A stretch of 64,000 nt of DNA. It comes from an uncultured Clostridia bacterium. Its GTDB lineage: Bacteria; Bacillota; Clostridia; TANB77; CAG-508. The stretch is from assembly GCA_934169775.1 (NCBI GenBank), contig CAKPOI010000005.1, positions 974-64,973 on the forward strand. Reading direction: 5' to 3'. Position numbers and translations under genes: made by a program. This document shows positions 26,282-26,571 of this stretch, piece after piece. How positions within the stretch are numbered: the stretch's first letter is position 1; each line of letters opens with the position of its first letter. The notes beneath the pieces are model-generated. The model ran no database searches, was not told the DNA's origin, and worked only from the letters and a program-made list of their open reading frames with translations.

Positions 26282-26571
26282 TTTTCTGGGCCGGAGTCAA
26301 AAAACATTATATTTTGGTAATCATAAAATAATGAGTGTTATATGCTTTAATAATTTTCTCGGTTCAATACACAACCTAAAAATTTCTAAAATAAAATAAT
26401 GTAATCCTTCATCTTAGTCCTCGCTTCGCTCGACGTGAAGCTATTCCATTATTTTATTTAAGAAATTCTAAGATTGCTCCAATCACATTCGAAAATTATT
26501 TTTACATATAACACTCATTATTTTTATATTTATTTTTAAACAATAAGTTTTTTTGACTCCGGCCCAGAAAA
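26282..26571. repeat. nested-palindrome element, copy C (perfect 23-bp REP-like termini)
   Basis: TTTTCTGGGCCGGAGTCAAAAAA (26282..26304) is the exact reverse complement of 26549..26571. The element lies 2 nt from the guaA stop and 2 nt from the ytvI stop. Confidence 0.9.

Follow-up and report, generated by a model that had tools for sequence, protein, structure and literature searches.

The segment that separates the convergent genes guaA and ytvI, at positions 26282-26571 of the window (that is, of the whole 64-kb stretch of DNA analysed here), is probably selfish mobile DNA made up of two nested repeat families, a foldback element and a set of short GC-loop units. As a foldback MITE family placed between REP-like units, the arrangement is new and undescribed. 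It is ordinary in kind; its orientation polymorphism is unusual and well supported.

An earlier note on this DNA had described the segment as a nested palindrome of five layers that occupies the entire guaA/ytvI gap. Both parts of that description hold: sequence inspection and a repeat finder recovered every layer at the coordinates given, and the flanking ORFs end at 26279 (plus strand) and 26574 (minus strand). The outer inverted-repeat arms (26277-26315 and 26538-26576) contain a 23-nt perfect repeat (26282-26304 and 26549-26571); the AT-rich arms (26325-26358 and 26491-26524) are 88% complementary; and the repeat finder places the inner stem at 26372-26405 and 26443-26476 (Table 1). The apex is GC-rich and non-palindromic, with a GTC/GAC stem and a GCTTCGC mini-stem that are backed by compensatory variants. 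The junctions were likewise correctly described as asymmetric and direct-like, with TTCAATACACA and TCCAATCACA similar in direct orientation and each able to form a mini-hairpin in the window copy; in the alignment of copies these mini-hairpins vary across subfamilies, i.e. they are not conserved. The predicted fold of 26282-26571 has an energy of -101 kcal/mol, compared with -37 +/- 4 kcal/mol for shuffled sequences (z = -14.7; none of 200 shuffles equals it), and both strands of the element fold far better than shuffled sequence (z about -14.5).

Table 1. Foldback copies, layers of the element between guaA and ytvI (copy C) and further GC-loop units in the window.
Feature	Position	Strand	Remarks
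Copy A	9520..9805	+	Same composite; GC unit 9520-9542, core and arms 9566-9764, degenerate right GC unit
Copy B	18173..18372	+	Core with different, perfectly palindromic arms; without GC units; inverted in 2 of 8 same-species assemblies
Left GC-loop REP-like unit TTTTCTGGGCCGGAGTCAAAAAA	26282..26304	+	Outer inverted repeat; one of two inversion crossover sites; switch maps within the 23-nt perfect repeat
Left spacer	26305..26324	+	Non-palindromic; differs among copies; flips along with the core
Left AT-rich arm, foldback element	26325..26358	+	Repeat-finder pair; homologous across lineages, with paired changes
Left junction segment TCGGTTCAATACACAACCTAA	26359..26379	+	Unpaired, asymmetric, sequence-conserved
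Inner stem, left arm	26380..26401	+	Many both-sided changes
Apex	26402..26446	+	Conserved 27-mer CTTAGTCCTCGCTTCGCTCGACGTGAA at 26413-26439
Inner stem, right arm	26447..26468	+	Many both-sided changes
Right junction segment TAAGATTGCTCCAATCACATTC	26469..26490	+	Unpaired, asymmetric, sequence-conserved
Right AT-rich arm, foldback element	26491..26524	+	Repeat-finder pair
Right spacer	26525..26548	+	Common to some other copies; its reverse complement is the left spacer of copy A
Right GC-loop REP-like unit	26549..26571	-	Inverted partner of 26282-26304
Two tandem GC-loop units	34326..34379	+	Profile scan
Inverted pair of imperfect GC-loop units, coreless	34788..34882	.	Repeats match poorly; never inverted in 11 assemblies
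Three tandem GC-loop units, 31-nt period	35199..35290	-	Copy number strain-variable
Solo GC-loop unit	42544..42566	+	Profile scan
Two tandem GC-loop units	44050..44103	-	Orthologous L124 site carries the core element too

Three copies had been reported in the window, and three are found: the apex 27-mer occurs at 9653, 18260 and 26413 (chance expectation 0), and a profile scan identifies exactly three cores, at 9566-9764 (copy A), 18174-18371 (copy B) and 26325-26524 (copy C). In the alignment they have a core of ~150 nt in common, and all three lie in convergent gaps. The further statement that the apex is the best-conserved segment stands within the window but fails across the family, where the exact apex 21-mer is present in only 27 of 61 apex-independent hits. 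No ORF is conserved between the copies, as had been noted, and peptides starting at the apex differ among them. A small peptide encoded at the apex on the minus strand (Shine-Dalgarno-like GAGGA followed by ATG) was considered and rejected, given that its start varies between ATG, GTG and CTG and that the resulting peptides are unconserved.

The GC-cored unit of the outermost layer recurs free-standing elsewhere in the window, as claimed, with a chance expectation of 0. This 31-nt repeat is a small hairpin in which an A/T stem carries a GC-rich loop, and the window holds 13 such GC-loop units in total, as solo units, tandem arrays and inverted pairs. These units constitute a REP-like family that is independent of the foldback element. 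At two of the arrays (35199-35290 and 34326-34379), the distances from gene to gene in L144-L153 are 674, 705 or 736 nt and 1625, 1656 or 1687 nt; these lengths differ in exact 31-nt steps, and the copy number of the tandem arrays varies among strains. Like REP/BIME sequences, the units are short, imperfect palindromes, abundant, intergenic and found in tandem or alternating arrays (including inverted arrays in L071). They depart from the classical REP definition of a G+C-rich stem accompanied by a RAYT, the stem of the unit being an A/T run and its loop GC-rich. A search for a REP-associated transposase produced one candidate position, as only one gene is flanked by inverted GC units; it encodes phosphofructokinase, not a RAYT.

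The stop codon of ytvI falls within the terminal TAATG or TGATG of a GC unit (window 26574-26582; ~3590-3600 in L071, L072 and L073), which means that GC units can supply stop codons. Where the unit abuts ytvI, the last encoded residues before the stop differ: DRN in the window and DKR, DRR or DRS in relatives. Other perfect palindromes, with GGGACG... and ...TTTTTGGG motifs, are present at the same convergent gaps in L073 (3599-3686) and L157 (2131-2207). Given such GC-loop-like motifs in the palindromes of sister species, the REP-like units may be part of a wider superfamily.

The foldback element occurs in many copies across a clade of AT-rich, uncultured gut Clostridia, from which about 120 copies in total were retrieved. 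A scan with the apex 21-mer, which covered one genome per species and is biased to intact apexes, returned 61 true copies, spread over about 13 MAGs of uncultured gut Clostridia, together with two chance hits; the better-sampled MAGs have 8-11 apex-bearing copies each. A second, apex-independent scan, in which metagenomes were searched with two junction motifs, gave 61 hits, about 55 of them true copies and mostly from the human gut. Every copy is intergenic, and all arrangements of neighbouring genes are represented. A convergent-gap location is no rule of the family: among the 46 copies with both neighbours called, only 5 are convergent and 14 lie between divergent genes. No orientation bias was found with respect to the neighbouring genes or the majority coding strand (34 versus 30), and the strand or replication bias expected of single-strand transposition or of a cis-acting RNA was rejected on the same counts. 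A phage or plasmid origin was also rejected, with no apex matches in viral contigs and no blastn match in annotated phage or plasmid collections.

Across lineages, one conserved core sits within shells of different termini, so that the core has either been captured repeatedly or inserted into the middle of palindromes belonging to other elements. At L112:1-400, one element site contributes the left flank (the one seen in L047) and another the right flank (the one seen in L026 and L128); this junction reflects either chimeric assembly across the repeat or genuine recombination between copies. At L130:~11680-11994, the site orthologous to the one with a foldback element in L050 (2700-2940) is occupied by a plain terminator-like hairpin, AAGGTTGAAAAA..TTTTTCAACCTT plus a T-run. 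Judged from such sequences, foldback elements may replace or target terminator hairpins.

Evidence of transposition comes from the sister lineages. In alignments, copies within a genome are nearly identical up to sharp boundaries, and the elements measure 236 or about 470 nt in seven MAGs (CAMBEE, CAKOWP, CAKOUU, URZW, CAKPNF, CALXAB and CAMMMI). Sister-lineage elements end in GTTACRATTCACAGC and its reverse complement, i.e. in terminal inverted repeats (TIRs), with GTTACRATTCACAGC at both ends in the CAMBEE, CAKOWP, CAKOUU, CALXAB and CAMMMI lineages. An 8-bp target-site duplication (TSD) with at least seven of eight positions identical flanks 17 of 34 distinct elements; random pairing of flanks (2000 permutations) yielded a mean of 0.7 and a maximum of 4. 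Decayed copies, a copy without the inner hairpin, a TIR-only mini-element and solo ends are also present. The family thus shows the attributes of a MITE: it is short, non-coding and dispersed, with terminal repeats, TSDs and empty sites.

The foldback family has accordingly been mobile in the sister lineages, and we infer from sequence comparison that the window copies arrived by transposition as well. The GTTAC-type terminal repeat is absent from all three of them, the outermost repeat (in copy C) being the 23-nt GC unit, and comparison with orthologs demonstrates no TSD for the window copies, since the intergenic DNA is too diverged or filled by other palindromes. A DDE-type transposase would presumably move the element in trans, by cut-and-paste or copy-and-paste. 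No GTTACRATTCACAGC-type repeat pair enclosing a transposase, i.e. no autonomous partner, was found in about 1 Mb of fetched loci. L155:1-1142 encodes a 566-aa DDE transposase (DUF772 / DDE_Tnp_1 / DDE_Tnp_1_6) immediately upstream of an aldolase gene; this enzyme was rejected as the partner because its end has no match to the terminal repeat of the family.

The history of individual sites points in the same direction. Copy C is present in all other same-species assemblies examined. In sister species, whose ytvI orthologues are 75-82% identical, the corresponding site measures just 4 nt from stop codon to stop codon in L072, and holds an unrelated perfect palindrome in L073 and, in the closest relative (L071), an inverted GC-unit array with no core. 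At the site of copy B, sister species have gaps of 0 (L154), 22 and 77 nt. Conversely, the window at 43.9-44.2 kb has GC units only and its L124 ortholog has GC units plus a core. The L124 and L071 patterns indicate that GC units and core arrive separately. The earlier suggestion of a MITE/BIME-like mosaic is thereby borne out: the outer units belong to a REP-like family, the inner ~200 nt are a foldback element of MITE-like type, and both window sites examined, those of copies B and C, have empty counterparts in sister species. An additional empty site sought through the synteny of L041 and L018 was discarded, the other flank being rearranged.

Two further observations concern this neighbourhood. 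In L071:3599-5520, guaA has an inverted orientation with respect to both ytvI and the gene on its other side, with GC-unit arrays on the ytvI side only; GC units were rejected as the cause of that inversion, as the far side has none. A database protein of 394 aa has both a GMP_synt_C hit and an AI-2E transporter domain; it is probably a mis-called ORF across the ytvI/guaA junction of a genome in which the gap is very short.

The location of the window copies raises the alternative of a domesticated 3'-end element, selected by the host as a bidirectional transcription barrier or an mRNA-stabilising structure between convergent genes. Such a role would suit the convergent position of every window copy, the abutment of both genes' stop codons on the element ends, and the other palindromes or simple terminator-like hairpin that sister species have at the same positions. 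We nevertheless consider it unlikely, as the family-wide counts are 5 of 46 convergent and 14 divergent, sister species manage with gaps of 0-4 nt, and a canonical terminator (a GC-rich stem followed by a T-run) is absent. A 3'-end role is also compatible with the selfish-DNA explanation as a secondary effect. On that explanation, any effect on the host would be a by-product, namely that the convergent transcripts would each carry a long hairpin at the 3' end.

The interior of the element inverts, a behaviour that the earlier note had not foreseen. At the copy C locus, the 244 nt between the 23-nt repeats show a 4:4 split in orientation among eight same-species assemblies, which are independent (from different samples and assemblers) and in which the flanks are identical and the interior is identical. 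An A/G difference immediately beyond the repeat remains linked to the gene, which places the switch within the 23-nt repeat. Copy B, which has no GC units, is split 6:2 in eight same-species assemblies, and family-wide 15 ortholog pairs at a minimum of seven sites are flipped relative to both flanks. In flipped pairs of the TIR type, the outermost arm markers keep their place beside the flanks, and all sequence internal to them is inverted; the breakpoints must therefore lie within long perfect stretches of the arms, with no fixed site. The evidence for inversion comes from metagenome assemblies throughout. With a repeat of 23 nt, shorter than the usual final assembly k-mers (k119 and k141 in contig names), ambiguity of the assembly graph would not be expected. 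Other typical final k-mer values also exceed the length of the repeat.

Conservation of the junction segments and the apex across lineages is unaccounted for by a purely selfish model. One conceivable answer is that the asymmetric core is functional cargo—a strand-specific signal, for instance an outward promoter, a site for protein binding or a polar block to transcription—that is spread by the shells and flips often. We regard this as doubtful. If true, the family would amount to a set of stochastic switches, or ‘mobile invertons’, dispersed genome-wide beside dozens of genes, and functional cargo would explain why junctions and apex stay asymmetric despite an exchange between arms that tends to make everything symmetrical.

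A related account, which we judge improbable, is that of a programmed inverton, in which a dedicated site-specific invertase flips the interior and thereby redirects a promoter, terminator or protein-binding signal between the neighbouring genes. Both orientations are indeed frequent, with identical interior and flanks, and the conservation of asymmetric junctions and apex across lineages is what would be expected if orientation were informative. A fixed crossover site, on the other hand, is not seen: breakpoints differ by site and fall anywhere in the long perfect arms (within the GC unit in copy C), and copies without GC units flip too. Nor do the signals to be redirected stand out, as promoter-like sites in a consensus scan are unenriched (2 versus 3.3 expected) and terminator-like sites (a GC-rich stem plus a T-run) number zero in 26150-26700. 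No recombinase gene was seen adjoining the copies among the window genes, which are partly annotated.

Under the selfish-DNA explanation, inversion would instead follow from the architecture of the element. The whole structure is in effect a long inverted repeat, and its arms could exchange through homologous recombination or through template switching during replication. Exchange from arm to arm would both flip the asymmetric interior and copy mutations between arms. Template switching between the arms of inverted repeats has been reported to result in arm homogenisation and spacer inversion (PMC8604942), and template switching and RecA-dependent recombination between arms would give the same picture.

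Paired changes in the arms are directly visible. At the strain level, they occur between L138 and copy B of the window, and at several paired positions between L018 and L041, the flanks of which are 98% identical. Across 20 comparisons of orthologous copies, stem changes are compensated in 9 pairs and one-sided in 49 cases, and a further 59 changes fall in unpaired regions; pairing of arm changes is thus far above chance, yet in the minority, and homogenisation is occasional. The apex has undergone compensatory double changes as well (GCTTCGC to ACTTCGT, and GTC..GAC to GCC..GGC). Conversion of its left side (L043) or of its right side (L084) has turned it into a perfect palindrome in some copies, and in others it is partly deleted or the GC-rich apex is absent (L122, L113).

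The same process would bear on how covariation in this family is to be read, since arm exchange would produce perfect pairing and apparent covariation without selection on RNA. A tally of 97 unique copies over 51 stem pairs found 95.9% of the stem cells to be Watson-Crick, with at least two pair types at 38 of the 51 pairs. The non-Watson-Crick cells comprise 26 G:T, 74 A:C (24 of them from one pair) and 103 others. Flips between A:T and T:A are common among the stem pairs. In 66 non-redundant copies, 22 of the 30 pairs predicted by RNAalifold have changed on both sides, and changes on one side only are almost absent. An RNA stem under selection would evolve via wobble pairs. The scarcity of wobbles and the many A:T/T:A flips fit a palindrome that is kept symmetrical at the level of DNA, not of RNA.

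These patterns argue against the structured RNA gene that the earlier note had offered as an alternative. That the element is a multi-copy structured non-coding RNA (ncRNA) gene or a cis-acting RNA element could be argued from its very stable predicted fold on either strand, from the abundance of compensatory stem changes, apex included, and from the minus strand, whose fold is slightly better and whose G:U-compatible cells are more numerous (A:C 74 versus G:T 26). Yet wobbles are unenriched among the non-Watson-Crick cells, and covariation is all but confined to Watson-Crick pairs with frequent A:T/T:A flips. Rfam, a database the note had proposed to search, returned no window matches at the gathering score and only chance-level ones at E <= 10, and scans for tRNA and tmRNA found nothing in the window. 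The orientation of copies is unbiased relative to genes and not even fixed at one locus, promoter and terminator signals do not rise above background in the consensus scan, the apex is dispensable in some copies, and the family has terminal repeats and TSDs. We therefore think it very unlikely that the element is an RNA gene. The smpB neighbourhood (17694-18158 and downstream), like the whole 64-kb window, yielded no tmRNA gene in the scan.

Least credible of all is an IS200/IS605-type PATE moved as single-stranded DNA by a Y1 transposase, with the junction segments serving as subterminal hairpins: TTCAATACACA and TCCAATCACA are alike in direct orientation and mini-hairpins are possible in the window copy, but they are unconserved across subfamilies, TIRs and an 8-bp TSD are present where IS200/IS605 elements have neither, the majority-coding-strand bias is absent (34 versus 30), and no Y1 or RAYT gene was found in the loci examined, the single gene flanked by GC units being that for phosphofructokinase.

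Read as selfish DNA, the foldback element can be compared with several known systems. It resembles the hairpin MITEs (Correia elements of Neisseria, ERIC/IRU of enterobacteria and RUP of Streptococcus pneumoniae) in being short, non-coding, multi-copy, intergenic and near-palindromic. Hairpin MITEs are often co-transcribed into the 3' ends of genes. Correia elements duplicate TA, whereas the TSD of the foldback family is 8 bp. Other differences from hairpin MITEs are the lack of similarity to Rfam families or to plasmid and phage collections, the placement of the core in shells with lineage-specific termini, and the occurrence of the interior in both orientations at one locus. Like hairpin MITEs, sister-lineage copies of the element are bounded by TIRs and TSDs (PMC3184786); inversion is unmentioned in this review of small repeats, and we found no literature linking MITEs with invertons.

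The GC-loop units are comparable to the REP/BIME sequences of Proteobacteria, which are likewise short, imperfect, intergenic palindromes in tandem or inverted arrangement with other elements between them (PMC2817692). They reverse the classical design, having an AT stem and a GC loop, no GTAG head was seen, and their host belongs to the Clostridia. Invertons of gut bacteria (invertible promoters) share with the foldback element a short intergenic segment between inverted repeats and the presence of both orientations in gut metagenomes; the element differs from them in its unfixed crossover and its many dispersed copies, and neither an invertase nor a promoter signal was found for it. With template switching, or quasipalindrome mutagenesis, it shares both signatures, i.e. 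arm homogenisation and spacer inversion (PMC8604942, PMC7202029). In that work the process concerns short repeats of E. coli and yeast, and it is not presented as the steady state of a transposon family.

The elements described here call for caution. They break assemblies or make them chimeric, as illustrated by several contigs that end inside an element and by the joining of two loci in L112. In RNA discovery, ‘compensatory’ changes can stem from exchange between arms at the DNA level instead of from selection on an RNA fold. In surveys of invertons, foldback transposons can flip to near 50% in populations without a dedicated invertase, and read-based detectors would flag them. For the organisms themselves, the result is the documentation of two undescribed repeat families in a clade of uncultured, small-genome gut Clostridia.
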